DNA from: Kondoa subrosea
Lineage: Eukaryota
Reading direction: 5' to 3'
Assembly: GCA_039545335.1 (NCBI GenBank)
Contig: BCIN01000003.1
Span: 992,001-1,056,000, forward strand
Length of the DNA: 64,000 nt
Numbering within the stretch: position 1 is the first letter of the stretch; each line of letters starts with the position of its first letter. The notes below the pieces were generated by a model. That model was not told where the DNA came from, did no database searches, and saw only the letters and a list, made by a program, of their open reading frames with translations. Positions 24,568 to 56,970 of the stretch are shown here, in pieces. Made by a program: the position numbers and the translations under genes.

Positions 24568-27500
24568 TCATAATCCCGAACCGCTCGGGTAATTGGGATC
24601 TATTGCCAAAGAGTTTTCCAACTCGCTCAGTTGAGAAGAGTAGTTATTGGTGAAAGCGCTCCAGGCCGATGCATCCATCTGCAAGACAAAATTAGGCTAT
24701 ACATAATCAAGAAAGTATTGATCTATTGAACTTACGCTGATAGGCATTTCATTCCAGAACAAGAGATCTGCCTGAGTGTGATCGTTTTGAGCGCCCCAGA
24801 GACCTTGAAAGTGAACATCGGAATTGTTATTGACATTGCTTGTTGTGTTGGCGGTGTTGTTGTTATTATTGTTACTGCTACTACCTAAGCCTAGGGGACT
24901 TGGACCAACGCTCGGGTGCGAAGCATGACCAAGAGCATGCGCCAGAGGAGCGGTATCCTGAGCGAGAGGTGGAAGAGCGGGTGAAGAAGAGCGCGAATGG
25001 GATGTAGATTGAGGCACTCGGCTTGCGGTCAGTTCGTTCTGCCCAATTTCATCCAGTTCCAGTAGAATTTGTCTGCAATACATCTCGTTAGCTTTTGATT
25101 AGGCTGCTATTGCCTCAATTACCGATGATGAGCTGCTAAAGTCCAACTTCCAGATAGCTCTTCTAGCCAGCCCATACACTGCAACACGTTTAACGATGAG
25201 CAAGACTGTGAAAGACTTACTCACCTGCTGCAAAGAGCGATGTGCTTTCTCTGCTAATTGAGGATCGGAACTTGCTTTATTGGCAACTTGCATAGCCGCT
25301 GCAGTGAAAATGACATAGACCATCTGGGTGGAGACTTTACGAAACCCGAAGCTGCGATGATAGTTTTCGGCAATCTTGCATATCGAATCTGCTGCGTTGG
25401 TGCAAATTTGATGTGAGCTAGGCATAGGGATCCCTTTGTATGTTAGACTAGGAGCCACAGGTATGTATGTACGGTGCAGAAGGAGATGACAGAGGAAGAA
25501 GACCTGTAAGAACGGATTCATCAGCCAAGATGCGGCGGGATCAGCAAATAGCTCTTACAGCGTTCATGACTAATAGATGCGATCCCATCCTGTTGATATG
25601 TGGACCCCAAGCAAGGTGGGGTGGCAGCTCAGCACGCCAATCTTCAAGCTGCGCAGAGATCTCTTGCAGTGTCACATGATTCACATCTTCTCGCCATTTC
25701 CTGCGCCGCTGAACAGAATAAACGCCTGTGATGATGTTCTCCAATATGCATGCCAGCGAGGCAAAAGCTCTGAAGGCCGATACGCCGCAAAGCTGAGTAC
25801 TTGCAGCTGCGCTCGGAGCAGGCACAATCTTGAGATAGCTTGGATCCCACATGCCGTATTCGGACAAGTCGTTGCTGTCTTTGACCGTAGGTAAGGGACA
25901 CTGTGAGCATCCAATCCCAAGACGAATGAGATAAACTCAGGTTGCCTGGCATTTACTCACATCAAGATCTTCTTGTCTAAGTAGAACTGGACGGCCAAGC
26001 ACAGCGGAGCACATTTTGTCTGAAAAACAACGATGATCAGTATCAGCTGTCGTGGCACAATCATCACCAACCTAGAATGTAGACGCCCCAGAAGCTGTTC
26101 GAAGAAATAATCAGTGCACATTCTTGTTTGGCAGCGAGGGAAACACACCTTCGTATCCTCTCTTCTGTTTCAACAGGACTGAAAGAAAAGCCAGCAGCCA
26201 CATTGACGTCAGGATGTCGATGTATGCCTAGATCAAGCGCCATTCGACTCGCAATACCTGGTCGTTTCAGCTTGTAAGCACAATACATTATTCTCATTCC
26301 GCACCAACTTACCGCTGTACTGCCAACCTTGAGCACTTCTACCTGTTCCCATCTCTCTAAGAGCCATATAGATCAATCCTTGCAGAACAGGAATAGACGA
26401 TTCGTTGTTTGACTGAACCAAGTGAAACCTCGCTCGATTGAAGTACAAAGCACCTAAAGTCCGAGGCGAATATCGATTCATATCCACTCCTGGTATTTCT
26501 TCAGGTTGTCCTTCAAGCGTTCGAGCAGCTATAGCGCAAGCAGCATTGAACAAAACCGGTTCCGTATGGAAAGCTTCTGAAGTCCTTTCTCGACCATAAA
26601 CGACAGGCCAAAGGGAATGAGCGAAAGTGAAGAAGATGGAAATCAGTCGTTCAACTATTGGTTGGGGTACATCTTCGTCAAAGGGTAGTTCTCCAGGTTC
26701 CGGTCCATTTGAAGTGTTTGAACCGGAAGCTGTTGGACTGACATCTTTCAACGCATGAGAGAGGAAAGATCTATCCACTGATCGTTCGTAGTCATGTAGG
26801 ATAGCGGATCTGTTCTCAGAATTCTCAGTTCAGCTGTTTCTAAAAGCTATCCGGAAGTGAAACAAACAAGCTAGTTTTCGGCGGTGGATTCAGGCTCAGT
26901 GATGCAGCGGCTGACATTCCAATTCCACTTCTAGCCAAAGCTTCTCTTCTCACATCTGTTTCGGTTCTCGTGTTACCATGATGGCCATAATCAGCTGCCG
27001 AAAAAGCTGGCAAACCGCTGGTAGGTCCTCGATACCCTGAATCGATGCGAGACATAGCTGCGTGGGAAGATTCCCAGTTATGCGAGATCTGGTTGACGAG
27101 AGAAGGTAATCGAGCCGGTTGCTGAGGTGGAACAGAACTACGATTGTCGGACTTGAGAGCGAGAAGACTTTGAGAAGCTGCTGCATCTATATCACCAGAA
27201 TAGCCTCTGCTAGGCTGTTGCTGATGACTAGTAGTCGCCAGAATAGGTACCGCTGGGAAAGTATGACTTCCTGAAGTCGTAGGTAAAGGAGGTACGCGAC
27301 CACTGATATCTGGCCAAGGAGTATTTTCCGTAGCAGGTATAATCATATGCGCGGGAGAGGTGAATTGAGGTGTGACAGGATATTCGGCTTGAGGGAATGA
27401 CTGTTGGCCGGAAAGAGGGATGCCATGTGATTGAGGAGTTTGGGTGAATTGTGAAGGATTAAATGCATCTGAAATGATGTGTGGTTGTACTAGGTTAGCA

Positions 27501-28190
27501 GAAGCTCCCGTTGGAGGAATATTGTAGAGCGTGTTCGACGGGTTTCGAGAGCGTCTATCAGAATAGGTCTCGGGTACTGGAATGAAGGTGTCAGTAACCA
27601 TTGGATCATCATGATAGACGCCCTTACAAGCAGCAGGAGGCGAGGGCTGTCGAGGAGCTTGTTGCAATTGAGGCTGTGGTACAGGTATGAAATCGTTTCT
27701 GACCTGGTCTTGAGGTACTGGCACTGGAATAGGGATGCTTGGGACAGCAGCGAAAGCTGCTTGCGGTTGCGTCTCAGGTTCTACACTGCTAGAAGGCCGA
27801 GCACCATCTTTCTTTGGTGGTTTTGGTCGAGTGTAGCCTTTGGGAGGTCCACGCTTCTTTGCGACTCCGTATTCTGCATGAGAGAGGAGAGAGAATGAGC
27901 TCAAAGATTCAGTGTAGAGGTCAGCGTACCGCAAGTGTCTGCTATCTTTGCATTTATGCAAGACCGACAAGGTTGCTGTCCATCACACTGTGCAGAGAAG
28001 TTTCAGCCTGTGGCCTTCAAGTAGATAGAGGTATGGCAGGAGGTACCTTCTGCTTCTTGTGACCACAAGTCTTGCAGGCCTGAGCGATGCGACTCTTTTT
28101 CTTAGGCGGTCCTTTATTGCTGTTATTTGCTTCGTCTGCTGAGTCATCCCTATCCTCTATTGGGTGTTTGGAAGTACTGGCGCTGAGCAT
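24568..28190 (-). CDS. Zn(II)2Cys6 fungal-specific transcription factor with Fungal_trans domain
   Basis: RIAQACKTCGHKKQK|CDGQQPCRSC...KKRGPPKG; middle region GWQYSG..ASRMALDLGIHR...ERIRR..FWGVYILD. Confidence 0.93.
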
Positions 28191-30996: not shown

Positions 30997-32980
30997 ATGC
31001 ACGCTACATTAAACGAAGCTGCCTTGAATGCGCATACTCGAGGACCGAATCAATCAAACCCATATCAGACAGTGAAACATTACCTAGCTCATATTGAACC
31101 TCCGAGTCCGGAAGCAGCTGCTGCTCTTGCTCCTCCTTTATCTTCTCCTTCTCATGCTTCTGCGAAAACGAGTTCATCAAAACATAGTCGAATCTCAGCC
31201 ATGAGGACTAAAGATGGCAATACACGTGATGTACCTAAACAACAACAACAGAAGAGCAGTAGGAAAGGAAAGGAGAAAGCACTTGAATCACCCATGCTGG
31301 TTTCAAGAGTGCAGAAACAACTTAAAGTTCCGACTCCTTCTCCCCCTGCTGCAGCTCGTAAACCACCACAGCAGAAGGCTGTGTCTCCGGTGAGGAAGAC
31401 GAAGAAGTCGAAGGAGAAGGCCGAGACGAGGGAAAGCGAAGATGATCCTGATCATATACAACGTGAGTGGTCCAGACTGTGTCTCGTTCGCGAAATTCAT
31501 CGGTCGAATCATTACTCACAGGTCTAGAAGCCCGCAGACTACGTCGACAAGAGAAAGCAGCCATCAGAAACCCCGTGAAGGGTAAACGGAAACGGGATGC
31601 CGAATTGCAAAGCGAGGAAGAAGCAGAAGAACAGCCTATCAAGAGTAAGAGGAAAAAGAGTCAGGCTGAACAAATAGTAGAACAAGTGACTGGTGGACCA
31701 TCAAGGCAGAAATTGCTTAATGTATCCAAAGATCGAATAACGGTCCGTCTATTTCATCAAATTCATGACAGTGTGATATTGAAGCTGTAGGAGGACAGCT
31801 CAAAGATCAACCCAGACTTGGGCTTTTCTCTAAAGGCGTTTCTTCAGCTCAAATGTCGAAACAATCAGTCGGTGTACCAGATTTGGCTTTCCACGAATAT
31901 TCGTTCCTCTCTCGCAAACCTCGACCGAAACTTTCCACGCCTTTTGTACCAATCACTGAATCCGACCTGCCAACTAAATTTCGTTCCAGAGAACTAGAAG
32001 AGCCGCCGGATTCAGGTTCTCAAGATATGCAAGAAGATGCTCTGTCTGCTGCTTCAAGAGAACGAAGGAAACAAGCAAAACCGAAACATCTACCTGCGAA
32101 AGCCGTCTTTCGTCAAGCAAGCCCAGCTAAATCAGCAGTCCTTTCTCCAAAACCTGCTTGCCTCAATCAGCATTCTTTGCCCTCACCTGTTAAATCTCTA
32201 CCGTCAAGATCTCCCCTTCCTATCCCTCTGGTACAACCTATCGCACGCCCTTCGTCAGTAGCACGTAATCTTCCTGAACCTCTTCCGGTAGAACAACCTC
32301 CAATTCCGCATTACGCATCTCGTCCTTCCTACTCAGTAAAAGCTACCCATATACCTGATGTCCCTTCTGCAAACATAAAAGACGAAGTCCCGAAACCTTT
32401 ATCTCCCTCCTCTGAAAAAGGGACAGCTAAACACAGTCGATTGAGTTCTAACACTACAGATTTGGATCCGGAGAAGATTTGCATGACTGGTTGGGATAAG
32501 ATCCTTTCTGATCCACCGCCGATGAATATGAGAAGACATGTAGCTTGGGTCTATGAAGAGGATGAGATGGTTGATGAGTCTTTGCCTATGCACGAAAAGA
32601 ATGCAGGAGGGGAATGGCTTCATGATGCGGAACGAGAGGATGGCTATGGACGAGGAGTGAACGGCCAAGAGAAAGACATGATCGAAGATCGAAGCGAACA
32701 AGAAGAGCTATACGCGGAAGCTGACTTGCAACAGTTTTACTGGAAAGAAGATGAACAGACATACGAGGAGGAAGAGATGCTCTACGCTCAACCTGGTCCT
32801 TATGCTATGCAAGAAAATTCTGTACCAGTGGTGCAAATGCAGGAAGATTATCTCGATTCTTACGAGCCAAATACTTCTCTCACAGCAAGAAGTCGATATG
32901 CTGACTGGGACCGACCGCAAGAGGAACCAGATGAGCTTGCGGGCTTCTGGTACAGACCTAGAAGATCATTTTGTATTTGA
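30997..32980 (+). CDS. Low-complexity fungal hypothetical protein, multi-exon
   Basis: Three long consecutive ORFs with splice signals; basic/Pro-rich, then acidic; short GVPDLAFHEYSFL motif. Start uncertain. Confidence 0.65.
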
Positions 32981-33069: not shown

Positions 33070-35533
33070 TGCGGCGCCATGTGTATTGGATTCCCCGCAT
33101 GATTGTTTTGGGGAGCCGACTTTCCTTGTTCTTGCACAGCGATTCTAACCTTACATTCATATACCTCAGTGAGAGAGATTGCCTTGAAACAAGATGCGGG
33201 AGAGAAAGAGCGTTCATCTGCCTGGCGAGATTATTGAGTCAGTGATATGCACAAGTTTCAGGCTGTCATGCTGATTATGGACATTCAGCTCTATCTTCCA
33301 TGCTCTGGCTTTGCACTTCACTGAGAAGCCTTCGGTCGATCCATACATTCATCTAGCTGCTGCACCTAAGTTTGCTTTCATTTCCTCTTCAAGCGCACCG
33401 GTCTTCTCCCCAAGTTTGCTCGATTCCGCACTTGACAACTTCTCAAAGCTATCTCTGGTTTGTCGAGAATGGAATGCCGCTGCAAGACCTTACCTCTTTG
33501 CCAATATGCGGATTGGTTTACCCAGGTCATTCGAAACTCTGTTGGAGTAAGTAATTATCTCTCGCTCAGAGTATGCAAACTAATACTGTAGATAGAGATA
33601 TAGGCGAAGATGATGATTACGATGATCGAACCGGTCGGTTTCAAGGCGATTCTGGCTCACCACCAGGTTCAAGAGATCGCAGCCGATCACGAAGCATTAG
33701 CAGATCACGCAGCATGACTAGAGATATGAGTCGAGAACGTGGAAGTAGTATAAGGGAGATGAGTGTAGACAGAGGTTTACCTGAAGGGCTACGAAGACTT
33801 TCTTTGGCTCAAACAGCAGAGAAGATGTTCACTTTTGGATCAGCTTTAACTCCCACTGTATCGCATGCTACCGGTATTGAACATTATAGAGAGGCTGCAG
33901 CAAATCCTGGTCTCCTGATATCCCTTCTCACCTTTTCATCTTTCAGAACGCACGGAATGAAGCGTACCGGAAGAGAGGGATCCCAACAACGCTTCGTCAC
34001 TTCCTCTCGCTTACTCAGTCTGCTTCGTGGTACTCGCGGTCATGGTGACTTGAGATCCGGCGTGATTCATCCCAAACATGAAGTGATTATACCTGAAGAT
34101 GGTGAAGAGGAAAGCTTAAGAGGTCGACTGGTCGCTCTGGGTCTTTGTGAATATATGGACAGTGCACTCAATTATCCAATGCTGGAAGAGTTGCTTTTAC
34201 GAGGAGGAATAGATGCAGTGTATGAGGCAGAAGATGGATCGGCCCACATCAAGCGAGAAGGATCAACTGTAGCAAAAGATTGCAGGCCACTGCAAGCACT
34301 TGATCTGTGCGGCTGTGTCAGCCGAGTCTTCATTAGCGGTCTGGAACAGCTCATTTCCTACTATCGACTCGGAGAAGGGCATTATAAAGATCCAGCATCG
34401 GGCTGGATACGAAGCTACTTCCCACACCTTAAACGACTTGGTATGTATGATTCTGGAATTCGGACAAGTCTCCTCACAGCTTTCGTCACGTCTTTCCCAA
34501 ATCTCACTCATCTCGATCTAGGCAAGACTCGCGCGTCTCCAGCTCTTCTCTATGCCTTAGCAAATACTCCGACACTAGATCTCGAAGCACTCAATCTTCA
34601 TCGCTGTAAAGGTATCGATGGTGAATCACTCATGGCATTACTCTGTCCACCCATAGACAAGCATTGCGTTACAGCTAAATTGCGCCACCTTTCCATTAAC
34701 GGGGATGAGAATGCAACAATTCTTTCCGAAGATCAACTCAAGCATCTCATCATCAATGGATCTTGCTTCAATTCCGGTTTACTACAGACCCTTGACCTCT
34801 CCTCGCATAAAATCAATGATGAAATTCTGAATCTTTTCCCACCTTCGCTATGGCAGGAAGAAGGTCGTCTGATCGTCTTGGGTTTAGCACGATGTAGAGG
34901 AATCACTTTACCTGGCGTAGCACATTTTTTGGAACACCGAGCATCAAGTGTAGAAGTTCTGGATCTGAGTAAGAGTTGTATTGATCATACTGTACCGTTG
35001 AGATACGGAAGTCAACCTCATATACCGATCATGGCTTTACATACGCAATTGATTTCGAAGCTGGGTCATGGCACATTGGGGCCACAGAGGACGAGGAAAA
35101 CCAACTTGAGAGTCTTGTAAGCTTATCATACTTTGCTGGTCAGGAATAGTTGCTAAAATATCGAGCAGAGAATTGGATGAAGCTGCTCTAGACTCGATCA
35201 AAGGAGGTGTAGAGAATTGGAAAGTCATTTTTGGTAAAGGCAGAAGGTCAGCACTCACCACTCTGCATATCGCCAGTTCACTCATTGTGTATTGACAGAG
35301 GCTGGTATGTCGATCTCAGCAGCACAGGAAGATTCGAACATGGTCAACGAATCTTACATCACCTTTCTCCCGATAGTGACGAACGTAGAGCATTAACGAA
35401 ACTACACAAAACGGGCGCAGAAGATGGAAGAGTTGGTTGGCATCCTCTCAAGCTAGAAATATTGCACGGGCATTCGTTTTTGGGTTGCGAAAGTGGGATT
35501 TATGCCTTTCATGCGTATCAAGTAGAGGCGTAA
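33070..35533 (+). CDS. F-box-like / RNI-like leucine-rich-repeat protein; start approximate
   Basis: HLPGEII...LSLVCREWNAAARPYLF F-box-like segment; LRR-type repeats LQALDLCGC, FPNLTHLDLGKT, LEALNLHRCKGI, LQTLDLSSH, VEVLDLSKS. Confidence 0.82.
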
Positions 35534-39049: not shown

Positions 39050-40624
39050 CTACACAATGTTCAGAACCTCCCAACCCTTTCTTCTACTGACGGTCAATAC
39101 CCCTTGATCCTCGTTGCGTACGTGAAGGTAGTGTTCTGAGCGTCCGGGACGCCAATCACCGCTAATGAGGACACCTCTATCTGCTGTAGACAGCTCGACC
39201 AAATCTTCGCTAAGAGCTTCAAACATCTTGTCCAATAACTTTTCTTCTTCGAATTCTTCCAAGAGGTGAGGTAGCTTTTCATGTAAATCGAGAACTACTT
39301 GACCTTCAACTTCAAAACTATAAGTCTTCAATTTAGGCAGATGATCTTGCACCAAAGGCAAGCCCAGAACAGATGACATCATACATATACTTCTTTCTTC
39401 TCCGGTGACATGGCAAAAGTACTTGAGTGTGAGATTTTCTAGATTGGCCAGAAACGCTGTCGCCAATGGTTGACCCCATAATAGTACGAGCGTGTTCGTG
39501 CATCGCGCTCCGCTGGCACACAGCGTCAGTGTCGTGCATTTGGGGATTGCCTTGAAAAGAGCAATGTAAAGGTCTGCAGTCTTGTCCTCGTCACGCAGCT
39601 CCCCCAGGTTGAGCGAGGTAAGGTTTGAAAGATACTTTGCCATATTCAGTATATAAGGTGCATCAAGGCCTGACCAGGTCCAATAGAATTCGACGGATCG
39701 AAGAGATTCCGCCTGGTCGCTTAATAATTCTTGCCAAGCATCTAAGCTCTCTCGCGAGTTTGCATCGGACAGTATAAAGTCCCAATTATTGATTGTGAAT
39801 TGTAAGATCTTCAAAGGGGAGGCTGCTCTTCTTAGTCCGCAAGATGGAAACGGTAAGTTGACCATTCTCAAAGTCTTCAAGTTGGGCATCCAATTTGTAG
39901 GGTAGGTGAAATTGAGTAGCTTGGATTGAGCCTCCAAGCCGTCCCCGGAAATGACGTGATATAGACGTAGGTGCTGTAGAAAAGGAAGTCTTCTTAATTG
40001 TGCGAGTGAAGGCAAAACAAGCATGTCTTCTCTGAAAGTATCTTCAGGATCGTTGGTAAGTAAATTGATCCGGACCCGGAAATGGCACAAAGAAGGTAGA
40101 CAGCCAAATAACTGGAGGACCGCATCGACTTCAGTCTGAGACTGTCTCTTGCTTTCTTCCACCGCATCTTCGTAATCATCGGGCAAAAATCCTTCAGGAA
40201 AATCGAGTATTCTAACACTCCCATCTTCTTCAACGTATCGCAGATCCGTCTCATGATCCCAAAAAACACTTCTGACATACGTTCCATGGTCGGTATCTTG
40301 AATAGTCCTTCGCAGCTGAGGATTGCTGAGTTCGTTCTGGTATAAAGAATGATATATATGAGGCAGAGTGATAGAATCTAGATCATTCCTGGTGAGTCGC
40401 GGAGTATGAGCAGGTGCAGAAGGACTCACAGAGCATGCCTATGTCCAGCAGGTTTATATCAATATCCCACCATGATCTCTCTGGATTAAAGCAGGCTTAC
40501 GATCAACCAGCAGCAGGGAGAACAGATCCCGCTTTGAATTCCTGTAGAATATATCCTCGGACCGCACCAGGTCCTCTGCAACCATTTCGACAATTCCCTC
40601 GATGATTTCAGGCGGAAACCTCAT
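39050..40624 (-). CDS. F-box-like/LRR-like hypothetical protein
   Basis: N-terminal MRFPPEIIEGIVEMV...DLFSLLLVDR; repeats LPFLQHLRL, MPNLKTLRM, LSNLTSLNL, LANLENLTL, LPKLKTYSF. Confidence 0.7.
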
Positions 40625-46400: not shown

Positions 46401-46880
46401 ACAAGGTATGTTCAGACGACACAAAAGTCTGCTATGCTCTAACGTTGGATTCCATAGCGCTTTGCCAGAGCTGATAAAGTATGTCCAACATGTCTCGCGG
46501 ATTGCACTGTGCTTTACATATTCTTGCAGCGAGCAAAACTGCCAAAGTGGATCAATCAGTACATCAATGAAGCAGCTACAAAGTACGTGTATTTGCTGAA
46601 ATGAAGTATCTTGCGCTGACGCTGCTGGTGCAGTCTTTCGACCGACGTTGCCTTGGTCATGTCGAAGCGTTTTTTGCGAAGTATGGCTCAACCTTTCGAC
46701 CAAAACCAGACGGGTATCAGTTTGTGGTCGCTCGAAGATATCGAGGCGAAGCAGCAGCAGCAAAGAGACCAAAACATGCATCTTGACAAAGCTGCGCCTG
46801 CTCCAGATGAGAACAACTATTACGAGGGACTAGAAGATGCAGCACTAGTAGAAGGGATGATGGCTATCGATGAGATGTAA
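43436..46880 (+). CDS. RAD3: TFIIH/NER DNA helicase XPD (Rad3/Rad15/ERCC2), many exons including a 10-nt micro-exon
   Basis: [32 protein letters not shown], Fe-S region [56 protein letters not shown]. Confidence 0.98.
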
Positions 46881-46900
46881 CTACAATGTAAATGTGGAAA
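46788..46900 (+). repeat. Left copy of ~115-bp direct repeat (last ~30 codons, stop and start of 3' UTR of RAD3)
   Basis: Aligns to 50343-50461; 60 nt identical (46824-46883 = 50385-50444). Confidence 0.95.
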
Positions 46901-47142
46901 TGCAAGTGACGGTTATGAACAGGCTCTTCTACTTCTGCCCCAGACTTCCACCAGACCTGAACAGCTGAATCAGGTCAAAGGGAATCGCAACCAGGAGAAT
47001 TTGCCTCTGGCTCCTTATTATCGGGTCACCAAGGCGATCGTAGAAGAATGCTTCAAACGCTGCAACCTTTGGGAAGGAAAGATAACAATAGCAATCAGCG
47101 ACTAGCTCAGCGATGTAACAAACAGCAGCCAAAGATAATTGG

Positions 47143-48352
47143 GTCGAAGCGAAGGGTCAAGTCGACAGAGTTTGCGCACTTGAAATGCCAACATCAAGGC
47201 TGCAAAGGAGAACGCACGAGAGGAGCTTCTACAGGCTGGTCCGAAGGTAGCAAAAGCTACAGAGAGCACATCACCCGAGAAGCTAGCGTTTTGTTTGCCG
47301 TAAGATTTGTCATCGACGGTAGGTATAGACGGTACAGAAGAAATGACTCGGGCGTAATTGCACGAATAGAGGCTTCTCGCACTTGTAATCACAAGGCGAT
47401 ACAGCAGGACGCGCACATGGCTTCTATGGGTTGGTTCAAGGTAGCAAGCTACTGGGATCGCGGCACTTGGAAGCAGGCGTTGGTGATGTGCAAGTCTCGA
47501 TGCGAAGCAGAAGAAGATATCAAGGGAGACAAGAAAGTAAGCAGACCTACCCTGTGATGGAAGGATTCCAAAGAAGCTCCAACCTATGGACGAAAGAAAG
47601 CAGCAGAAATCAGCTACCAATTAAAAAGAAATGACTGATGACGAGAGCAGACGACCGCATCGGGCAAAGTTGCATGACCCCGAGGCTTCCAGCACTTGAG
47701 AGTCTTCAAGGCAGGAAAGCAGAACGCGGGAAGGGCTTCAAGTTTAGTTGGTCCAGGGGTAGCAAGCTACTGAGGGCACGTCACTCAAGAAGCATGCGTT
47801 GTCGATAGGGGAAGCCCGATGCGATCAAGCAAGAGAAGGTAACACGGCAAACAAGCTGAGAAGGAGACCTACTCTTAGCAAAGGAGTGGTTGAAAAGACA
47901 TCCCAAGTCTCAAGTTTACAACAAGTTGATAGGTGGCGACCTTTATGGGAATGCGCTGAAGGCTATCGTCAAGTCTAATACCTGAATGTTGCTGCTATGC
48001 GCAGCGTGTAACTGTTTCTGCCAAAACGGAGCCGGCTGCTTTCAGTAGCTCCGACGCTCACAGGGGATTGTGAAAGAGGAATTCGCCTGTGGACAAAAGA
48101 AAGCACGTGAGCCAATAGTCCTCCAAGAACGAAGGAACAGAAGAGCAAAAGATCGCGTCGGACGGATTGCACGGAGTGAGGCTTGTCGCACTTGAAAGGA
48201 CAAGGCAGCAAAGGCAGACGCATAGAGGGCTTCTATGGATTGGTTCTAGGGAAGCAAGCTTCTGGGAGCACGTTATTTGAGAAGCATGCGTTATCACCCC
48301 GCAAAGTCCAAGACGATCAACAAGAAAGTAGGATGCGGACAAAGAGACCTAC
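47143..48352 (+). ncRNA. Array of four diverged ~150-175 nt structured repeats (putative ncRNA units), family unknown
   Basis: Shared anchors GCACTTG (47176, 47379, 47692, 48188), CAAGGC, ACGC, GCTTC, G(T/A)AGC-AA(AA)-GCT(A/T)C, GAAGC, GCGTT. Nested helices are retained through compensatory changes and G-U pairs on the + strand. Frame-breaking indels between copies argue against coding. Confidence 0.65.
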
Positions 48353-48599
48353 AACGTGCAAGAAGCTTGTTGTCCATATTGTTGCAAGAAGAGAAGTGCA
48401 AGAGCGGGTGAGAAGAAGCGTCAAAGAGGCGAAAGTATGGATCAGAAAGAAGCAGGATACTTAGAAAAATGCACGATTTTATTCACTGGAATGTAACGGG
48501 ACACCGCTCGGAGCCGAGAACAGCACACACTAAAGCCCAGGGCGGTGGCTCGACAGTCCAAGGTGCACCAAAAGTAGTCCGTTGGTCAGTTTCGAAAGG

Positions 48600-49840
48600 G
48601 TAAAGAAAGAGCACGAGTAGCGACGCGGAAGAAAACGTTCAGACATAGATGAGGGATAGATACAGTAGCAGAAGATGCAGAGGACGACGCAACAAAGGCA
48701 GAAATGTTCAATCGAGCGCAATCGCATTCCAGTCGGATCTGCGCATGACTTTCGAAGGAGAATGAAAGGTGATTGCACTGGAGAGATCCACTGCTCCTTG
48801 ATACAGCCAGGGCAGACAATAGACAATGCATATCGAGCTAGAACATCGTTCAAGTGCAACCTCGCTCTGTTTTCCATGAGCGAAAGTCATGCACTGTGTT
48901 TTCGGTACTTTGTGGCCTTCTGCAGCAGCAGCAGCAAGCGCAAGACATGCTGCGGATCACTTCAAGGCTCGCTAGACTCTGATCGGAGCTGACCTCTTGT
49001 GTTTGCGAAACATCGAAGTTGCAACATATCAGATCCTAGACACTGGACTGGAAGCAGGCCTGAGCAAGCAAGATATTGTGCTGATGCTCAGCAGAGCCTA
49101 TGGACCCATTCTCGAGGCAATCAGAGCTTTCCTGCGCGCTGCCTGCAAAACGGAACAAGGCACTCCATCTGGAGTATTCAGCAGTCTTATTCTTCAGCTG
49201 TTGCACTTCTTCTAGTCTTCTACCTTCTTAGCCGATGGTCTTGTTCCGTTAGTCGCGATACAGGCTTTTGGCAATCTCTTTACTATGCGAAGATACATGA
49301 ACATGATGCGCTTCGAATTTCGAGAGGATGACGGTGCAATTACCTATATGAAAGGCTTTTGCAGATCATCTTGCGGTTGTACGTGCACTTGACGCGCCAG
49401 CGCACGAGCTCAGGGCTGATTTCTAGAAGTGGACAATCATCCTGGATCTAGCTGTCGTTTGGTATAGTGCAGTCGCAAAGTTCAGCGCTCCTTCTCATGC
49501 AATTCAAAGCTGAAGAAGACCAAGAATGGGCAACAACTTCACTTCGAGCTCATGCAAACTCAATCAGCGCATCGTGCTTTTGGTCAAAGTTGCGCTCCAA
49601 CGAAGCTAGCAGCCAAATGCTTGAGATTGGTGCTTGAGATTGGAAATTGCTCTCTCTCTCTCTCAGGGCTACAGAATTCAAGTTGTTTGATCATATCGAA
49701 CCAATGGAGCAATCAAGCAATACCTACAAGGCGAAGATTGGCACGCAAGCATCCACTCCAAGACGGAGCGTTGATGTATGGCGACGGACGTAGCCCTATT
49801 ACGAGCGACACCTGGAGAAGAGGGTTGATTAAGTGCTAGA
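48600..49840 (+). pseudogene. Decayed ORF remnant of unknown family
   Basis: Protein-like frames interrupted by stops (e.g. ...LQLLHFF*SSTFLADGLVPLVAIQAFGNLF..., TAG at 49213-49215) and an intron-like gtacgt...ctgat..tag at ~49379-49426. Confidence 0.35.
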
Positions 49841-50342
49841 ACAGACACTAGCTAATAATGATTGCAATTCATGAAGCTCATTGATTTCCGCTCTACTGCT
49901 TCTTGTTTGAATGGCTCTCTCATTGTTCGCCTTCGTCATCCTCCTTTCTAGTCCATGCTTTCGCGTTCTTTAGCCGGTCTAATGCAATGCTCAATGCAAA
50001 GAAGCAACAGGCTGTCCTTCTCCACTGGATATCTGTGCGCTATCAAACTCTATATCTCTATAAGTCGACAACAAGCAGGTTTCTGAATAGCACTATGGGG
50101 ACTAATTGCTTCTCTACAAGCATCTCTGCCAGCTAATTTACTACAGAACCGTTATTCTGCCTTCCATCTCTCTACTCATCAAGTAATATAACGTCATCCT
50201 CAGCTCGGCGAACCGCTTCTCCTAACGCTGCGCAAGCTTTCAATGTACTCTTATAACCGATGCCACTCTGTATTCTCCACTGACAACAGGAGACAACACG
50301 AAACAAGAAGAAGAAGAAGGAAGAAGAGAGAACAAGAAGAAG

Positions 50343-50461
50343 AAAGCTTTGCCTGCTTCAGACGAGAACAACTATTATGGATATGAGGGACTAGAAGATG
50401 CAGCACTAGTAGAAGGGATGATGGCTATCGATGAGATGTAACTATAATGTAAGTGTGGAAA
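50343..50461 (+). repeat. Right copy of the RAD3 3'-end direct repeat (orphan gene tail)
   Basis: Encodes [32 protein letters not shown], versus RAD3 [30 protein letters not shown]; no RAD3 sequence precedes it. Confidence 0.95.
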
Positions 50462-50650: not shown

Positions 50651-50673
50651 TGTCCTTGTTACCTTTTGCATTT

Positions 50674-53600
50674 CTATCGCCTGTTGACATGTGTCGCACA
50701 TTTCTTCCCTAAACCGATCATCACTCTGATATCACATCCGTGATAGTCACATATAGGTGACGGTTTGCCTTTTCGCTGCTGGTACAAATCAAGGCATTCG
50801 AAGGAGCAGAACTTGGCCTTCTTGTTGCTGCAACGTTGATTGCATGCGGAAGACTCGCAAATCTTTTTCCCGTTTCCGTCGAGCTTTGCAGCCAAGGAAG
50901 CTTGTTGGTAGCAACGACTGCACTTGTTGCCAGCTCCCCGAAAGATCCTGGTACACGAACACATTTTCTGGGGTTTTTGAGCGATCACAGCTGTAGGACT
51001 TTGTTGAGCTGATGACGAAGAAGGTCTCTTGCTAGATGTAAGAGCTGTCCGATGCTATTAATTGTAGCCAATGAAATGAAAGACTGCTGACCTTTGGCAC
51101 CACCGGCTTTACCGGAGTTTGCTTTATGATGAGATTTGCACCGACAAGGGCAGAGCGGAGCACAGTCTGAGGCGTTACTGAATGCTGGACAAGCGCGTTC
51201 TCTTGCAGAGACACACACTTTGCAGCCACAGTAGCAGCTGGCAAGATCATGACTCTCAGTTGTGCATCGACACAGGAAAGCTTTGTCGCCCCAGAACCAC
51301 GAAGAATGAAAGCTGTTGACGCTTGTGAACCGACCAGCTAGAAATTCTTCCCAAAGACGTGCTTTAGGAATACATAAGATGGGGAATACGGGTGAAATAG
51401 AGTGCAACTGACCAACTCGATTCCTGTCATCTATCCCAGATCGACCCGTTTGAAGTACGGTGGGAATGATGGTCTTGATATCGCCTTGAAACGAGGAAGA
51501 TTGCATCCCAGTGATGAATTTGCTCGAGCTTGAAACGCGATTGTAAACCAGGTCGGACATCGTTTCGTCTCCTTCCTGGAAAATGAGAATAGGACAGACT
51601 AGAGGTAGGCATTTGGCCACGCTATAGTATTGACCGTTGATCTGCAAAGCTTGTTCCATGCGTAATCCCATGTCAGCGAAGTAAGGTGAGAGGAGAGTAA
51701 AATCGGCCGGGTGCCATAAACAGCCAACAAAAGTCTGACATCGACGTGCTGCCATGTTTTTGATTTCTTCAAGATTTTCGACTGTGCGCGCAAGCCGATC
51801 TATAGAGGTGAACAAGACTAAAGAATCTTCATAATCGTCTTTATCTAGAGCAATCTCTACTGAATTTTCAATGCAAGCGGAAAGAGCCTCCAGAGTCAGG
51901 ACTTCACACTCAATTCCGGCGGGAACAAAAAGACGTAGAAATTCTCTTTGGCGCATGATTGAGTTGGAGCTTTCCAAAGAGGTACGAGATAAGATGACAA
52001 TACGCTGAAGAATATGATCGGTGCATACTTGCCTGAGCTGGCTTTTGATTTCGGCAACGAGAGCCAGCAGAGCTGAATCTTTCTCTCTGTATTGCTGAAG
52101 AACTCGATCCATCAGGAGAGCGGAATCCGTATAGAAGGCTTGCTCTTGAGAAAGAAGCAGGGCGTTCTTGAGGTGCAATCGAATAAGCGCTTCGTTATCC
52201 ACAATTGAAAACCAGGTTTCTGGACCAAGCTCTTGATCTTCTTCCTCATCATCATCATTGTGAAAAATACCATTCGCTTTGATAGCCTGATCACCATCCT
52301 TTGCAAGCGCTTCCAAATCCTCCTTCGTAAAACCTCGGGCGTAACAGCTAATACGATATCTTCGTAGGGACTCCATCATAAAAGGCAAATCATCTAATCT
52401 TCGGGTTAATCGATCAATATTGGAGAAAAGGATCATTGATCCCGGTTGCAAATTCGAAATCATTGTTGTGAAGGCTATTCGATCTTCCAAGGCATGACGG
52501 AAACTTGAAGCATGTTCATGAATTGTCGACAGCTCAAAGACATTGGCGAAGTCTTTTCGAAGTACAGAAGGGGGAGATGTAAGAGACGAAAGGATCTGGC
52601 GAGCAACAGATTCGTTTGCCTTGGTAGAACGATCTTCGTCCGATGTTCGTGCGTATACGACGCATGACGGTTGTCTGGCCACTGATGGATCGAGAGGAGG
52701 TAAATCGCTAAAGTCGAAGAGGTCTTCAGCAGGTTCAGAATTGACCGAGAATGCTTTTCTCAAGTGTGGAGCAATGATTCTATCGACCAACACCCTTGAA
52801 AGCATGCCATCTTCTCGAAAGAGCTTGCGTAAATTAGAAGAATAATCCAGTTGCGTATGCTTGCCAAGATTGAAGAGATCAGGATCCAGAAGATGTACTT
52901 CTTCCAGAGCGGTCGATAATTCATGCGCGTCATCTTCATGGAGCTCTTGAGGAGAGAATATATGAGGGGAGTGACCAAGCAAAGGCTGATGCACAACCAG
53001 AACTTGAAGCTTGCCAGAGCTGACGAGAGCTATATCTTTGGGTAGAGGACAAGACACTTTGTAGATGTATAGCTTCTCTTGAGCCATCCCATTACCCAGC
53101 AGTACTCTTTGGAGAGGTACCAGATTGATGTCCGGTAGGTTTCGCCAGTCCTTATAATAGCCAAGAAGCTCACTAAGCAAAGACTTCAGATTGTAAACTT
53201 GAGGAGTCGATGCACCTTACTCGAAGAGCTGCTGCTTCTCAGAACCTTTCACTTTATCTAGATCAAATTCTTCATCTTCTTCAAGCATGTTCATATTGTC
53301 TCGCAAGATCGCTCTCAAAGTATTTGCAGGACAGCCAGTACATGCTCTGAACGAGGATATTGACTTGTTGATGCTTGCAGAAATGGCAAAGAATTCATAT
53401 TCAGCATCAATAGCTTGGCCATGTTGAAGACTGATCAAGTAAGATTGTGCAAAATCGCTATTGCTTTCTGTCAGAATTCTTGAGCCACGGTGACGGTCTG
53501 TTCGCACGCCTCCAAAAATGCCACCAACTGGCCAATACTCGAAGGTAGTAATGGTATCTGATCGTCGAAAGACGTTGATAATGCAAGGTATTCTTCTCAA

Positions 53601-54563
53601 GTTCGCTGTGACCTCGTCCAAAGAGTCTTCAGATATATACTTGAAGTGATGGAGGATAGAGACCAGATGTAAATCATCTATTTGCTCACAAGAAAGTATT
53701 GAGATGCCAATTGAGTCGGTGAGCATTTGGGAAAGAGAGGTAGAAGCAGTGGAGGAAGGAGCAAGGGATGAGCGGCTAGTAGAGCTACAGGATGGTTGTT
53801 GATGCTTTGATGAAAGAGGTGGTCGAGGGGTTGAACGAGGTTGAGTAGCTTGAAACGTGGTTTCCAACAATTCAAAGATAGCCGGCGTGTAATGACTATG
53901 TTCTCGTTTAAGATTGATAATTGGCGCTGACTGTTCTTGAGCGTTTATGTGAGTGATTGTAGTGATAATCGCGCCTTCTCCTTCTTCGATGATTTCGCGG
54001 ACATCCGCAATCTGAATAACGCAGCTGAGAGCTTTTGCTAGACAAGTGATTGCCAATGTGTCGGCCCAAGTACTGGTCTTTCCCATCTCCCAACGCCAAC
54101 GAACTTGCAATTCATCAGCAGTCCAGTTCTCCTCCGTTTCCGCCCACTCTCGAAACATTTCATCATATCTTGTGGTGAATAATCCAAGATCTTGAGCCTG
54201 CCAGTCAATGTCGGCCTGGTTGATGCACAGATTTCTTAATTCATCCGCTAAGTTTCGATCTACGTTGCCCGAAAGTGCGAACCCGACAGAGGTAAAGAAG
54301 CAGGAACCATCCGGAGGAACTTCAGCTCTTGTTGTGACTGATATCAGATCTACGCGATAATCTTCTTCCGGTATTAAAGCAGTGTTGGGTTCAACCGCAG
54401 CATTTACTTGAAAGAGGTTACGAAGCAGAGGATAATCTTGTCCTAAGTGCCGTTCGTCTAAAGAGTAAGAGCATCTCGCTTCTTGTCGAGAACGCTTCGA
54501 AGTTGAATCTGGCAAAGAAGGTGAACAAGCTCTCTTGCTAGGTGTAGCAGCGGGGAAAGCCAT
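50674..54563 (-). CDS. ~1247-aa multidomain protein: OTU-like cysteine protease + two tandem serine-recombinase (resolvase-like) domains + Cys-rich putative Zn-binding tail
   Basis: OTU motifs EVPPDGSCFF, TWADTLAI, HSHY. SR1 CVVYARTS...ESVARQ...NIDRLTRR. SR2 IVILSRTS...SIMRQREFL...SIDRLART. Predicted GT-AG introns 53220-53173 (48 nt), 51412-51362 (51 nt) and 51091-51045 (47 nt) join three ORFs into one 3744-nt frame. Confidence 0.8.
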
Positions 54564-55503
54564 TCTATCAGGACCTGAACTGTCAGCAAAGCTGATTAGC
54601 TAAAGCCAAGAACCTACGTGTCCTAATACAGCAGCTTGATAAGTAGCGAAGGCGAGCGTGATCTGCAATCTAGATTTGAGTGTTGTACATCGTAGGATAG
54701 CTAGAAAACTGACAAGGTGCTTGATTGATGCAGTGCGAACATACGAGGCTGAGAAACGCGCAAAGCTTGAACGAGCGGTTTCGCAGATGAAGAATAAGCG
54801 CAAGACCATTGAAGGTTCTCCAGAACAACCTGTGAGTGTGCGAAAGCTTGACAGAGGTCTTCGCTAAGCATTGCAAACACATCTGAGGCATCGCTGAGCT
54901 CTTGACATAGCCCTAGCGAATCTTGCAAGCCAAATCATCGCTCCGCGTTTCCTTCCAATTTCTTCCCTCTTCCTCTGTGGCTCTTGTCATTCTTTTCGCG
55001 TGTGCAGATGCAGCACGCTGGCATGTTGTTGCGTGAGTCGCTCAATCAAGCGACGGAAGAATAACGAGCATTTGATCTATCGTCCTCTTTCCTTCAACTT
55101 CTTTTGGGCTGAGCAGCGACAGCTTTCATATGATCTCTCTCTTCCTTTCCATTGCATCACTTTTGGGAAGTCCGGGTATAAGGTCGTTACGCTGTTGGGA
55201 CAGGCACGGCTTGAATCGAGTGGTGGTGTGATTCGTCGGCTAACGGGCAACAGCCGTGTCACAAAACCTATCTCGTCTGAAAGCTAGGACGCTGTTCTGT
55301 CCGCTGTATCCCCAGCAGATTGATTCTGGACTCCGGGAATTGGTGCAAACCTGGATTGTATTTGGTTTTGTTTTTTTTCTGTATTCACATATCTTTGCCT
55401 CTGTCTCGATGACAATCGCCTCTTGTCGATAGTGGCCATCCAATTCGCTGTATGTTTCACGCAGATCGATGTCTGCTTTTCTCATGTGATGATCTTCTGA
55501 AAG

Positions 55504-56730
55504 CATCACCATGGACGACGAACCTTCTATCACACGGCTCATGGTAGTCTAGCATACTTCCTCTTCTTCTATTTGATTGCGCAAGTCGGATGCGGCATCT
55601 TTCTCAAACCTTATGAATGGAAGATTGATTCGCGACCTCGCGCTTAGCGCATAGTCAGTTCGGCAAGATCTTTCCTGTATTGAAATGCATATAGATTGTG
55701 CTTGGTGCTATAACAGCTCTCGGATGTAAGCTACCTTCGTCTACTGTTCGCCTGGAGCTGACAATGGTATTTAGTCTGTATGTTTGAAGCAATAACTTTT
55801 CCTGTCGTCTTGTTTATGAGACTCGACGTCTATAGGCTTCAATGATCCACCTCCAGATGACTACCTGGGCCAATGTCTTGCTCAGTGAGCTGTCTGATAA
55901 CCAAGTCAACACTTGAAAGTGATGCCTCTTTCAGCTTCATCATGGGTAGCGCCTTTCAAGCTTATGGCATCTGTCTTCTCATCATGATAAGATACGGCCA
56001 ACCTTGGCTGGCGAAGCGAAAGACTAGCCAGGATTATTTGGATAGCTGGATGATCATGTGCTGGGGTATTGTCGGTCTCTCATCACTTTCGTCGCATTCG
56101 AGCCTTATAACGCTTATTAGATCAATACCTTTACGATGCACAATTTCTTTGGCTCAGAATCGCATTGGTTGCACAAAGGTGGGCAATATTGCAGTGTATA
56201 TGTGACCAATACATTGATTCCAACTATGCAGCATACGACGATGGTAAATTAGGCAAACTCTATACAGCATTCATGATCGGCTGATGCTTGAGCTTTAGGG
56301 TGTCGTCTGGTGGATTTCTGGCGCTGCTGGAATCTGAATGGGAAGGAACAGCCAAAGAAACGGTGAGTGATTACGCAACGCTGAATGATCAAAGCTCAGA
56401 TTAATTCCAGTCATTCCTGCATTAGTCATGGGTACAACAGGTCTAGCGATGGGATCTCATGCACAGAGTGATATGCTAGCTACGGTAAATCTACTTGCGA
56501 TCAGTATTAATCTCGCTCAATCCCTTTGTCAGATGGTTCACAAGATCTTCGGCATGACTTTGGCGCTATTTGCAGCAGTGCGAATAGTAGAAATTAGCTT
56601 TTTGCTCAAAGACAGCCATGCTGTTCAGTCACCTTCTTCTTTCCACTATCTTTCGCCCCTACAAAAAAAAAAATTGTTAGACCGTAGTCTAATCCACTCT
56701 GATCATGCGTGTCATCCTTGTGCAGGGGCC

Positions 56731-56762
<32 letters not shown>

Positions 56763-56970
56763 TTGTGTGTACATCAAAAGATGACAAAATCCGGAATGTT
56801 TGCAGGCCCCTATATATACTTTGTTTTGCAGAGCTGTAGCTTTTACTCTGCGAAGAAGATACGAGGAAGGCTGAGGATCTGATGAGGGCAGAGCGAGAAG
56901 AGCGGCCGCTCAGATAGACAATCCGCTCGACTGCAAAGACAAAAGCTATCTGGGAAACGGAGGAATGAGG
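55504..56970 (+). pseudogene. YTP1: YTP1-like (DUF2427/Ytp1) membrane protein, apparently 5'-truncated with premature stop
   Basis: HHHGRRTFYHTAHGSLAY, DDYLGQCLA..FIMGSAFQAYG, QHTTM|GVVWWISGAAGI*MGRNSQRN (TGA at 56335-56337), IPALVMGTTGLAMGSHAQ, MVHKIFGMTL. An A11 run at ~56663 and further stops lie near the end. Confidence 0.7.

Follow-up and report, generated by a model that had tools for sequence, protein, structure and literature searches.

A predicted spliced gene of the fungus Kondoa subrosea with tandem serine-recombinase domains, and the fungal protein family to which it belongs

Introduction

Serine recombinases are the workhorses of DNA rearrangement in bacteria and phages and of genome engineering. 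A 64,000-nucleotide (nt) stretch of the Kondoa subrosea genome (assembly GCA_039545335.1, contig BCIN01000003.1, positions 992,001 to 1,056,000; the whole of this stretch is called the window below) contains a minus-strand locus at 50674..54563, in which a first-pass annotation had noticed two resolvase-type signatures and an OTU-like protease unit. This raises the question of whether a fungus possesses an intact gene for such a recombinase, and whether the gene serves a mobile element or the host. Our sequence analysis indicates that the locus is one intact spliced gene of this Pucciniomycotina (basidiomycete) fungus, with a predicted product of 1247 amino acids (aa). The product order is OTU domain, family N-terminal region, beta-rich domain, two recombinase catalytic domains and Cys-rich modules.

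Gene structure

Three stop-free frames were found on the minus strand, at 53217-54599 (frame 1, 460 codons), 50985-53216 (frame 2, 743 codons) and 50674-51054 (the last frame, 126 codons). Frames 1 and 2 share one reading frame, interrupted by a single TAA (53217-53219). A scripted rebuild with the ATG at 54563, three GT..AG introns and the stop at 50674-50676 gave one frame of 1247 aa, whose 3741 coding bases have no stop and no frameshift once the three introns are removed. This reproduced the first-pass proposal of three open reading frames joined through introns of 47-51 nt (48, 51 and 47 nt in our rebuild, all GT..AG). The predicted parts of the gene are as follows.

50674..54563, minus strand: whole coding region from ATG to stop, 1247 aa without the three introns
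53221..54563, minus strand: exon 1, aa 1-447 and the first two bases of codon 448, a continuous frame from the ATG with the OTU domain, a Ser/Pro-rich linker and the first part of the family N-terminal region
53173..53220, minus strand: intron 1, 48 nt, GTAAGG..GCTTAG, carrying the sole in-frame TAA between frames 1 and 2
51413..53172, minus strand: exon 2, with the beta-rich pre-domain, recombinase domain 1, an acidic linker, recombinase domain 2 and the start of the C-terminal domain
51362..51412, minus strand: intron 2, 51 nt, GTCAGT..CTAAAG, in frame and stop-free
51092..51361, minus strand: exon 3, holding the conserved Cys-rich module
51045..51091, minus strand: intron 3, 47 nt, GTCAGC..GGACAG, shifting the frame into the last exon
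50674..51044, minus strand: exon 4, with a Ser-rich linker, repeated Cys modules and the stop codon 50674-50676

The introns are predicted, and their support is comparative, coming from the style of host genes and from colinear relatives. The neighbouring RAD3/XPD-type helicase gene, mapped on a relative's protein, fell into ~17 exon blocks with 16 gaps of 30-175 nt (median 52), whose 5′ ends include GTCAGC, GTCGGT, GTATGT and GTGAGC. The sizes (47-51 nt) and 5′ sites of the introns predicted here fit this pattern.

All three junctions are bridged colinearly by relatives. At intron 1, the spacing of the flanking homologous blocks is about that of the relative P0003, whose N-terminal block lies ~120 residues before the part aligned with frame 2. 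The 17 residues that intron 2 would encode are a gap in a 41-sequence alignment of the family, and they fall where the predicted local distance difference test score (pLDDT) of our structure model is below 50 (residues 592-610). Around intron 3, the tblastn matches of relatives break off at 51063-51138, and the chytrid protein P0043 picks up again, in colinear order, at 50976-50662. By sequence comparison the intron 1 junction appears to be the weakest-supported of the three, since the similarity of exon 1 to the relatives is weak and a profile of the relatives' N-terminal block gave no significant match to exon 1 (E 0.17).

Tandem serine-recombinase domains

Two recombinase catalytic domains were identified in frame 2. 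Residue numbers such as R190 and S413 refer to frame 2, while Ser625 and Ser846 refer to the 1247-aa protein.

52086..52673, minus strand: recombinase catalytic domain 1 with a long E-helix, frame-2 aa 182-377; Ser codon 52641-52643 (Ser625)
51492..52007, minus strand: recombinase catalytic domain 2 with E-helix, frame-2 aa 404-575; Ser codon 51978-51980 (Ser846)

A Pfam search of frame 2 matched Resolvase (PF00239) over two stretches, with E 3.7e-10 and 40.5 bits versus 23.3. When scanned alone, domain 1 also matched PF00239 (E 5.8e-8, 33.4 bits). Domain 2 alone fell below the Pfam cut-off (E 0.011, 16.3 bits), but it is secured despite this score by its structure match, by its similarity to domain 1 and by the relatives. 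Alignment of the domain 1 and domain 2 sub-alignments by hhalign gave a probability of 97.2% and E 2.9e-11, and the equivalent of domain 2 passes Pfam in relatives, as in residues 368-462 of P0002 (E 3.3e-11). The motifs are Y-A-R-T-S and I-D-R-L-T-R-R in domain 1 and L-S-R-T-S and I-D-R-L-A-R in domain 2, so that Ser, Arg and Asp-Arg-x-x-Arg are present in both. The two serine codons lie where the first-pass annotation had placed them.

An AlphaFold2 model of frame 2, built with 40 relatives, had a pLDDT of 80.6 and a predicted template modelling score (pTM) of 0.74. Foldseek matched this model with probability 1.00 to gamma-delta resolvase, Sin and Tn3 resolvase, the E values for the 743-residue query being only 5e-3 to 5e-2. 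In a VIA-align search with the same model, rows 1-27 were all serine recombinases or IS607-type structural-genomics entries (3lhk, 3ilx), with Z scores of 8.8-5.7; these matches always fell on residues ~404-575, that is, on domain 2 and its E-helix, through chain residues ~125-154. A second model, of residues 33-400, had a pLDDT of 84.7. It was compared with 48,161 representative chains without a Foldseek pre-filter, and rows 1-15 were serine recombinases or 3lhk (Z 11.3-5.9). The domain 1 scores were 11.3 for Bxb1, 10.7 for TP901-1, 10.0 for Sin, 9.8 for IS1535 TnpA and 9.8 for Tn3 resolvase, and the next unrelated row scored 5.7.

Both domains are thus modelled with an alpha/beta catalytic fold followed by a long E-helix, and the models assign the serine-recombinase fold to each of them. 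Absence of this fold had been named beforehand as grounds to reject the claim of two tandem serine-recombinase domains; with PF00239 on frame 2 and serine recombinases first among the structural matches, the claim held. Sequence searches against the chains of the PDB were negative, both with the family profile (E ≤ 0.01) and with each domain (E ≤ 1). A two-copy complex prediction of residues 125-585, in which the alignment was unused, scored 0.00.

Conservation of the active site was then compared between the domains. The domain 2 columns were counted over 41 sequences: R411 in 39/41, S413 in 39/41, S419 in 38/41, R422 in 37/41, Q423 in 40/41, S446 in 39/41, D473 in 34/41, R474 in 39/41 and R477 in 39/41. 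For domain 1, counted over non-gap rows, R190 was found in 33/34, S192 in 26/34, R246 in 34/35, D268 in 28/37, R269 in 33/37 and R272 in 34/37. The domain 1 serine is therefore lost in 8 of 34 sequences, at least 7 of which have Val, Ala or Ile in its place and most of which are from Kwoniella or other Tremellales. Members of this Kwoniella/Tremellales branch (P0012, P0025, P0032, P0044 and others) have replaced the domain 1 serine and kept the domain 1 arginines together with a complete domain 2. Every active-site residue that we checked is intact in both domains of the K. subrosea gene.

Beta-rich pre-domain and Cys-rich tail

A conserved domain precedes recombinase domain 1, and two Cys-rich stretches follow domain 2.

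52845..53075, minus strand: conserved beta-rich domain before recombinase domain 1, frame-2 aa 48-124 (family profile E 8.8e-5; confidently modelled)

The module in exon 3 (51123-51278) holds 11 Cys and 3 His in 52 aa, with the family pattern C-x-C ... C-x-C-x-C-x2-C ... C-x-C ... H. The Cys repeats of exon 4 (50677-50964) follow the form C..C ... F-C-S-x2-C and hold 12 Cys within 96 residues. The Cys-rich C-terminus of the first-pass annotation is thereby borne out. A profile of the family C-termini matched the last frame with E 1e-11, and phmmer with the last exon found P0043 (2e-7), P0047 (1.3e-5) and P0017 (1.3e-4).

None of the beta-rich domain, the Cys-rich module and the last exon matched a family in Pfam or NCBIfam, and the last exon had no Pfam match at E ≤ 1. 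No helix-turn-helix was found by Pfam in any of the three frames at E ≤ 1. We take the last-exon repeats to resemble zinc fingers of the FCS/MYM or TRASH type. The Cys-rich modules presumably bind zinc.

A family of fungal proteins

When 1.84 billion cluster representatives were searched by phmmer with frame 2, 78 scored E ≤ 1e-3, of which 31 reached E ≤ 1e-10 and 8 reached E ≤ 1e-30; the best relative was 39% identical. Organism names were available for 19 of the 31 clusters examined, and all 19 were fungal, from chytrids to basidiomycetes, with five phyla or subphyla represented. The named relatives are Rhodotorula and Microbotryomycetes sp. (Pucciniomycotina); three species of Kwoniella and Tremellales sp. 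(Tremellales); Violaceomyces (Ustilaginomycotina); Aureobasidium pullulans, A. vineae, Zymoseptoria tritici, Coniosporium, Elasticomyces and Daldinia (Ascomycota); two species of Podila, and Dissophora (Mortierellomycota); and Phlyctochytrium (Chytridiomycota). Their labels are all hypothetical or uncharacterised; one Joint Genome Institute (JGI) entry outside these 19 is called 'DNA invertase Pin-like'.

When 79 relatives were scanned with Pfam, 32 had a Resolvase match at E ≤ 0.001, and this was the sole family that appeared. The 41-sequence alignment revealed a common layout. It begins with a region containing W-x-S-x-R-x-D-R, the beta-rich domain, F-R-x-D-G and recombinase domain 1, and continues with an acidic linker, F-Y, recombinase domain 2, L-W, Q-G, the Cys-rich module and a variable number of Cys repeats. 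The hallmark of the family, as far as this alignment indicates, is the tandem recombinase core with the N-terminal domain and the Cys-rich tail, and not the OTU domain. In P0002 (Rhodotorula paludigena), residues ~500-559 carry W-x-H-L-R-x-D-R-H, the N-terminal motif of the others, at the end of the protein after the second recombinase domain; this arrangement suggests head-to-tail copies or a merged gene model.

A tree of the separate domains placed 36 domain 1 tips and 41 domain 2 tips in two clades with none misplaced (support 0.979). Since the tips split so cleanly, the duplication of the domain is ancestral to the sampled family. We also built a core-region tree with FastTree and midpoint rooting, from which 5 of the 41 rows were dropped (cover below 250 residues). 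At least two deep lineages within Aureobasidium were present in it.

Relatives outside fungi were sought with family patterns from a 10-row alignment. None of 18 pattern matches among prokaryotic genomes, taken at one genome per species, was a relative, nor was any of 17 in IMG/VR. A metagenome-contig search with P0092 found 2 loci only. NCBIfam gave no family for the 1247-aa protein and four relatives, besides two irrelevant weak rows.

These results bear on whether the gene was recently acquired from a bacterium or virus, or is an assembly contaminant. Serine recombinases are overwhelmingly prokaryotic or viral, and the eukaryotic cases found in print are IS607-like transfers (PMC3673617, PMC2715888). 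The gene itself has three host-type spliceosomal introns and a GC content equal to that of the window, which argues against a recent bacterial transfer. Intron-rich fungal genes flank it on the same contig, all relatives with an organism name are fungal, and neither the prokaryotic and viral searches nor the bacterial models of NCBIfam yielded a counterpart. We consider a recent transfer or contamination extremely improbable.

Comparison with known recombinases

Small serine recombinases (gamma-delta/Tn3 resolvase, Sin, Hin/Gin) share the modelled catalytic fold, including the E-helix. Domain 2 matched Sin (5c32) with Z 8.6 and a root-mean-square deviation of 2.6 over 111 residues; domain 1 matched Sin (5c31) with Z 10.0 and Tn3 resolvase (5cy1) with Z 9.8. 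The motifs Arg-x-Ser ... Ser-x3-Gln ... Asp-Arg-x-x-Arg are common to both groups, and presumably correspond to R8, S10, R68 and R71 of gamma-delta resolvase. However, the small enzymes have ~180-200 aa, one catalytic domain and a C-terminal helix-turn-helix, whereas the K. subrosea protein has 1247 aa, two catalytic domains, Cys-rich modules, spliceosomal introns in its gene and a fungal host. Membership in the small resolvase/invertase subfamily was rejected on its two catalytic domains and the lack of a helix-turn-helix family in Pfam at E ≤ 1.

The top structural scores came from large serine recombinases, namely Bxb1 (9iu2, Z 11.3) for domain 1 and the attL-bound integrases 9y66 and 9dxf (Z 8.8) for domain 2. 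Large serine recombinases such as Bxb1, TP901-1 and TnpX are likewise big and multi-domain, and their catalytic domain is followed by a zinc-binding part that recognises DNA. They differ in having a single catalytic domain, and the pattern of the Cys modules in the K. subrosea protein is different. Their Recombinase and zinc-ribbon domains were not detected by Pfam; a distant likeness in the C-terminal part (frame-2 residues 539-700 and exon 4) is conceivable.

Crypton, DIRS and Starship elements are eukaryotic and partly fungal mobile elements whose movement relies on site-specific recombination and not on a DDE transposase; their enzymes are tyrosine recombinases, which are unrelated in fold and chemistry. 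No tyrosine recombinase domain was found in the frames of the gene by Pfam.

The catalytic domains of IS607-type enzymes also match structurally (6dgb, Z 9.8; 6dgc, Z 7.7 with 25% identity). IS607 TnpA consists of an N-terminal MerR-type helix-turn-helix and one catalytic domain, whereas the present family has two domains and introns and spans the fungi. Assignment to the IS607-family TnpA was rejected, as Pfam found no MerR or other helix-turn-helix, NCBIfam no match, and no TnpB-type family was present among the 13 other long frames of the window. One survey describes 80 IS607-like sequences in 14 eukaryotic species, whose similarity to bacterial IS607 is 42-68%; they carry a MerR-type helix-turn-helix and one resolvase domain, and are read as recent transfers or domestications (PMC3673617). 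Another report mentions six IS607-like copies in Lachancea kluyveri (PMC2715888).

Our search of full-text literature, made without subscription journals and Repbase, found only such IS607-like cases of serine recombinases in eukaryotic genomes, fungi included, and no description of a tandem serine recombinase from a fungus or another eukaryote. Within that literature the family is undescribed.

The OTU domain and exon 1

Two regions of exon 1 were recognised.

53889..54317, minus strand: OTU-like cysteine protease domain, aa 83-225 (Pfam PF02338)
53466..53882, minus strand: aa 228-366, weakly similar to the family N-terminal region and including an R-x-D-R-H motif (phmmer)

The OTU match (PF02338) covers residues 83-192 with E 1.4e-6 and 29.3 bits against a gathering score of 23.3, and a match to otubain (PF10275) below the cut-off (E 3.7e-4) reaches residue 225. 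Both catalytic motifs are intact, D-G-S-C with Cys88 (54300-54302) and H-S-H-Y with His224 (53892-53894). A language-model feature search (Atlas) placed 27 of 30 matches in the OTU set, with a top score of 0.95. The profile score and the Cys and His motifs together place this region, at the level of sequence, in the OTU family, and they agree with the OTU-like unit noticed at first pass.

Beyond the OTU domain, frame 1 runs for ~220 residues into sequence colinear with the N-terminal regions of the relatives. When aa 228-366 were searched against 94 family proteins by phmmer, colinear matches were found in P0082 (E 2.1e-4), P0003 (~1e-3) and P0018 (1.4e-3), and BLASTP against P0003 gave E 0.005. 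No relative of exon 1 was found at E ≤ 0.01 among proteins of 246-784 aa.

It might be proposed that the locus contains two genes, an OTU protease whose stop is the TAA at 53217-53219, followed by a recombinase with a start of its own. Consistent with this are the stop itself and the absence of an OTU domain from all 79 relatives scanned with Pfam, the fusion being seen in the K. subrosea gene only. The similarity of exon 1 to relatives is low (E ~1e-3 to 5e-3) with a non-significant N-terminal profile, and frame 2 has its first Met at residue 44, just ahead of the beta-rich domain, which starts at residue 48. However, the stop sits in a canonical, in-frame 48-nt intron of host type, and the part of frame 1 past the OTU domain is colinear with the relatives' N-termini, at a spacing to the core like that of P0003. 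Two separate genes therefore seem quite improbable to us. Of the OTU-recombinase fusion claimed at first pass, the shared reading frame in this gene stands, and its extension to the family does not.

The OTU domain would be a lineage-specific add-on, possibly acting in deubiquitination or self-processing. Some eukaryotic transposons, Helitrons among them, carry OTU domains as cargo. In Medicago, Mutator-like transposases fused to a protease of the OTU superfamily have been described, and a role in polyprotein processing was proposed (PMC1702500). The partner in Medicago is a DDE-type transposase, whereas that in K. subrosea is a tandem serine recombinase.

Mobile element or host gene

The best reading of the locus, to which we give somewhat better than even chances, is that it encodes an active, site-specific recombinase belonging to a fungal element that is, or until recently was, selfish. 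Several signs of selfishness were found. The recombinase gene has 3 introns in 3.9 kb, compared with ~16 in 3.3 kb for RAD3. Identity to its relatives within the subphylum does not exceed 39%, against 85-90% for a 145-residue RAD3 fragment compared with proteins of Pucciniales and Microbotryomycetes. The family is also sparse, with its 78 clusters among 1.84 billion representatives.

Decayed copies were present in a relative. A 128-kb Aureobasidium-like metagenome contig (L001) carries, at 10001-12047 on the plus strand and beside VPS39, a 5′-truncated copy with two in-frame stops. This copy consists of domain 2 and the tail only and matches residues 579-1252 of P0063, and a domain 1 profile found nothing upstream of it. 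At 16976-17269 on the minus strand, 5 kb from the truncated copy, lies an N-terminal fragment from another lineage, 98 residues long and sharing 89% identity with P0027.

Contigs of 7470/7471 nt (the P0003 cluster) and 10724/10725 nt (P0058/P0095) recur with nearly the same length in several independent runs, which is what a discrete repeated, episomal or extrachromosomal unit would give. For 7 of the 19 named clusters the longest contig is shorter than 12 kb.

Besides the Pfam score of domain 2 and the loss of the domain 1 serine described above, a number of observations weigh against an active selfish element. The flanks are ordinary housekeeping genes (RAD3/XPD, YTP1-like, U6 small nuclear RNA, Mago-binding) in a gene-dense region, the GC of the gene (0.457) equals that of the window, and its introns are of host type. 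Only one copy is present in the 64-kb window, all 90 of 90 tblastn matches of family proteins lying within 50662-53213. No inverted or direct repeat pair brackets the gene in the region searched (42-64 kb), no tRNA gene was found in the window, and neither Pfam nor NCBIfam gave a known DNA-binding family in the tail. The core-region tree groups the named tips by higher fungal taxon, with the K. subrosea gene among Pucciniomycotina. Such grouping fits long vertical descent, which a host gene and an old transposon lineage would show equally. The lack of terminal repeats is weak evidence, since IS607-type elements have neither terminal inverted repeats nor target duplications, according to PMC3673617.

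The same observations can be read as those of a domesticated host gene, in which an old fungal family has kept the tandem core for a cellular task and no longer moves. Programmed DNA rearrangement, resolution of DNA structures or non-catalytic DNA binding might be such a task. The clustering of named members by taxon, the host-type introns and surrounding-like GC, and the long intact frame in a gene-dense housekeeping neighbourhood without bracketing terminal repeats all agree with it; so does the Kwoniella/Tremellales branch, where loss of the domain 1 serine with retention of the arginines may signal an altered function under constraint. Yet the sparse distribution of the 78 clusters, the extreme divergence relative to the RAD3 fragment, the truncated and stop-bearing sequence on L001, the several deep Aureobasidium paralogues, the short contigs of 7 of 19 named clusters and the poverty of introns relative to a host gene speak against domestication, and we regard it as unlikely, if the most serious competitor of a selfish element.

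The locus could also be an inactive relic, a once-functional gene that is now silent or a decaying pseudogene. The relative's copy on L001 is clearly decayed, and the stop codon between frames 1 and 2 vanishes only if intron 1 is spliced. On the other hand, the 3741 coding bases are free of stops and frameshifts after removal of three canonical host-type introns, the active-site residues of both recombinase domains and the Cys/His motifs of the OTU domain are intact, and both structure models are confident (pLDDT 80.6 and 84.7). A relic is accordingly judged improbable.

More tentatively, and with chances that we place below even, the family as a whole may supply the recombinase for a superfamily of eukaryotic DNA elements that has so far escaped recognition, native to fungi since before the split of chytrids and Dikarya, which would combine serine chemistry, a single-chain catalytic pair and zinc modules that read DNA. 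The first-pass annotation had proposed a eukaryote-adapted serine recombinase or transposase of a possibly undescribed element class. The eukaryote-adapted serine-recombinase gene is upheld by the introns and the two complete domains; for the transposase, the signs of mobility are indirect and mixed.

Proposed mechanism

Serine recombinases act as a tetramer of catalytic domains, in which each serine cuts one strand through a 5′-phosphoserine link; one pair of subunits then rotates by 180 degrees against the other on a flat interface of E-helices, and the strands are rejoined. In the model, whose packing is confident (pTM 0.74), the K. subrosea chain has two complete catalytic domains, and an E-helix belongs to each of them. 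We infer that the protein may be a working site-specific DNA recombinase that cleaves through phosphoserine like bacterial resolvases and phage integrases. Its two catalytic domains would provide two of the four subunits of the tetramer, and two chains would suffice for strand exchange. The covalent link might join two subunits on one DNA site, forming a 'single-chain dimer', or equally two co-rotating subunits; linking the latter would avoid twisting of the linker.

Domain 2 would be the constant catalytic unit, and domain 1 would be catalytic in K. subrosea, its serine being lost in about a quarter of the relatives. The universal conservation of domain 2, together with loss of the domain 1 serine in one branch, suggests at the sequence level that catalysis cannot do without domain 2. 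For DNA recognition the Cys-rich tail is the sole candidate, and it might stand in for the DNA-binding helix-turn-helix or zinc ribbon found in the bacterial enzymes. Most likely the family spreads, or did so until recently, as a selfish element that integrates or transposes and, like IS607, lacks terminal repeats.

If this proposal is true, serine-recombinase chemistry would be indigenous to a eukaryotic kingdom, and an obligatory four-subunit assembly could be built from covalently paired subunits; we know of no natural enzyme with recombinase subunits paired in this way. Indigenous DNA transposition of eukaryotes would then have a fourth enzymatic route, beside the DDE, tyrosine-recombinase and HUH routes. 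Active members would be candidates for a new class of fungal mobile elements, and compact integrases already suited to the eukaryotic nucleus. Loss of the domain 1 serine in Kwoniella and other Tremellales would offer a natural experiment on how the two domains share the work.

Neighbouring sequences in the window

The following genes were identified around the recombinase gene.

~43.6-46.9 kb, plus strand: RAD3/XPD-type helicase gene (Pfam DEAD_2, HBB, Helicase_C_2)
55.9-56.8 kb: YTP1-like membrane protein gene (Pfam; last frame 56389-56784, plus strand)
56680-56785, minus strand: U6 spliceosomal RNA gene (Rfam RF00026, 85.8 bits, full length)
58.3 kb: Mago-binding protein gene

The U6 gene overlaps the 3′ end of the last YTP1-like frame on the opposite strand. 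Five long frames of 380-626 codons have no Pfam family; they lie at 19268-21148 (minus strand), 26840-27982 (minus), 31769-32980 (plus), 33555-35120 (plus) and 39050-40438 (minus). Examined by eye, these five appear to be low-complexity and rich in Ser, Pro, Ala and Gln, or leucine-rich-repeat-like, and no similarity to the recombinase family was detected in them.

The 3′ end of the RAD3/XPD gene at 46788-46900 (the last ~29 codons, the stop and ~20 nt of 3′ untranslated region) is duplicated 3.56 kb downstream, at 50343-50461, with 89-96% identity and one 6-nt indel. The second copy lies ~210 nt past the stop of the recombinase gene. Between the two copies are 3.44 kb (46901-50342) with no Pfam-recognisable frame and with internal repeats of 72-82% at 47357-48320. 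This arrangement may reflect a segmental duplication, or an insertion flanked by a long target duplication.

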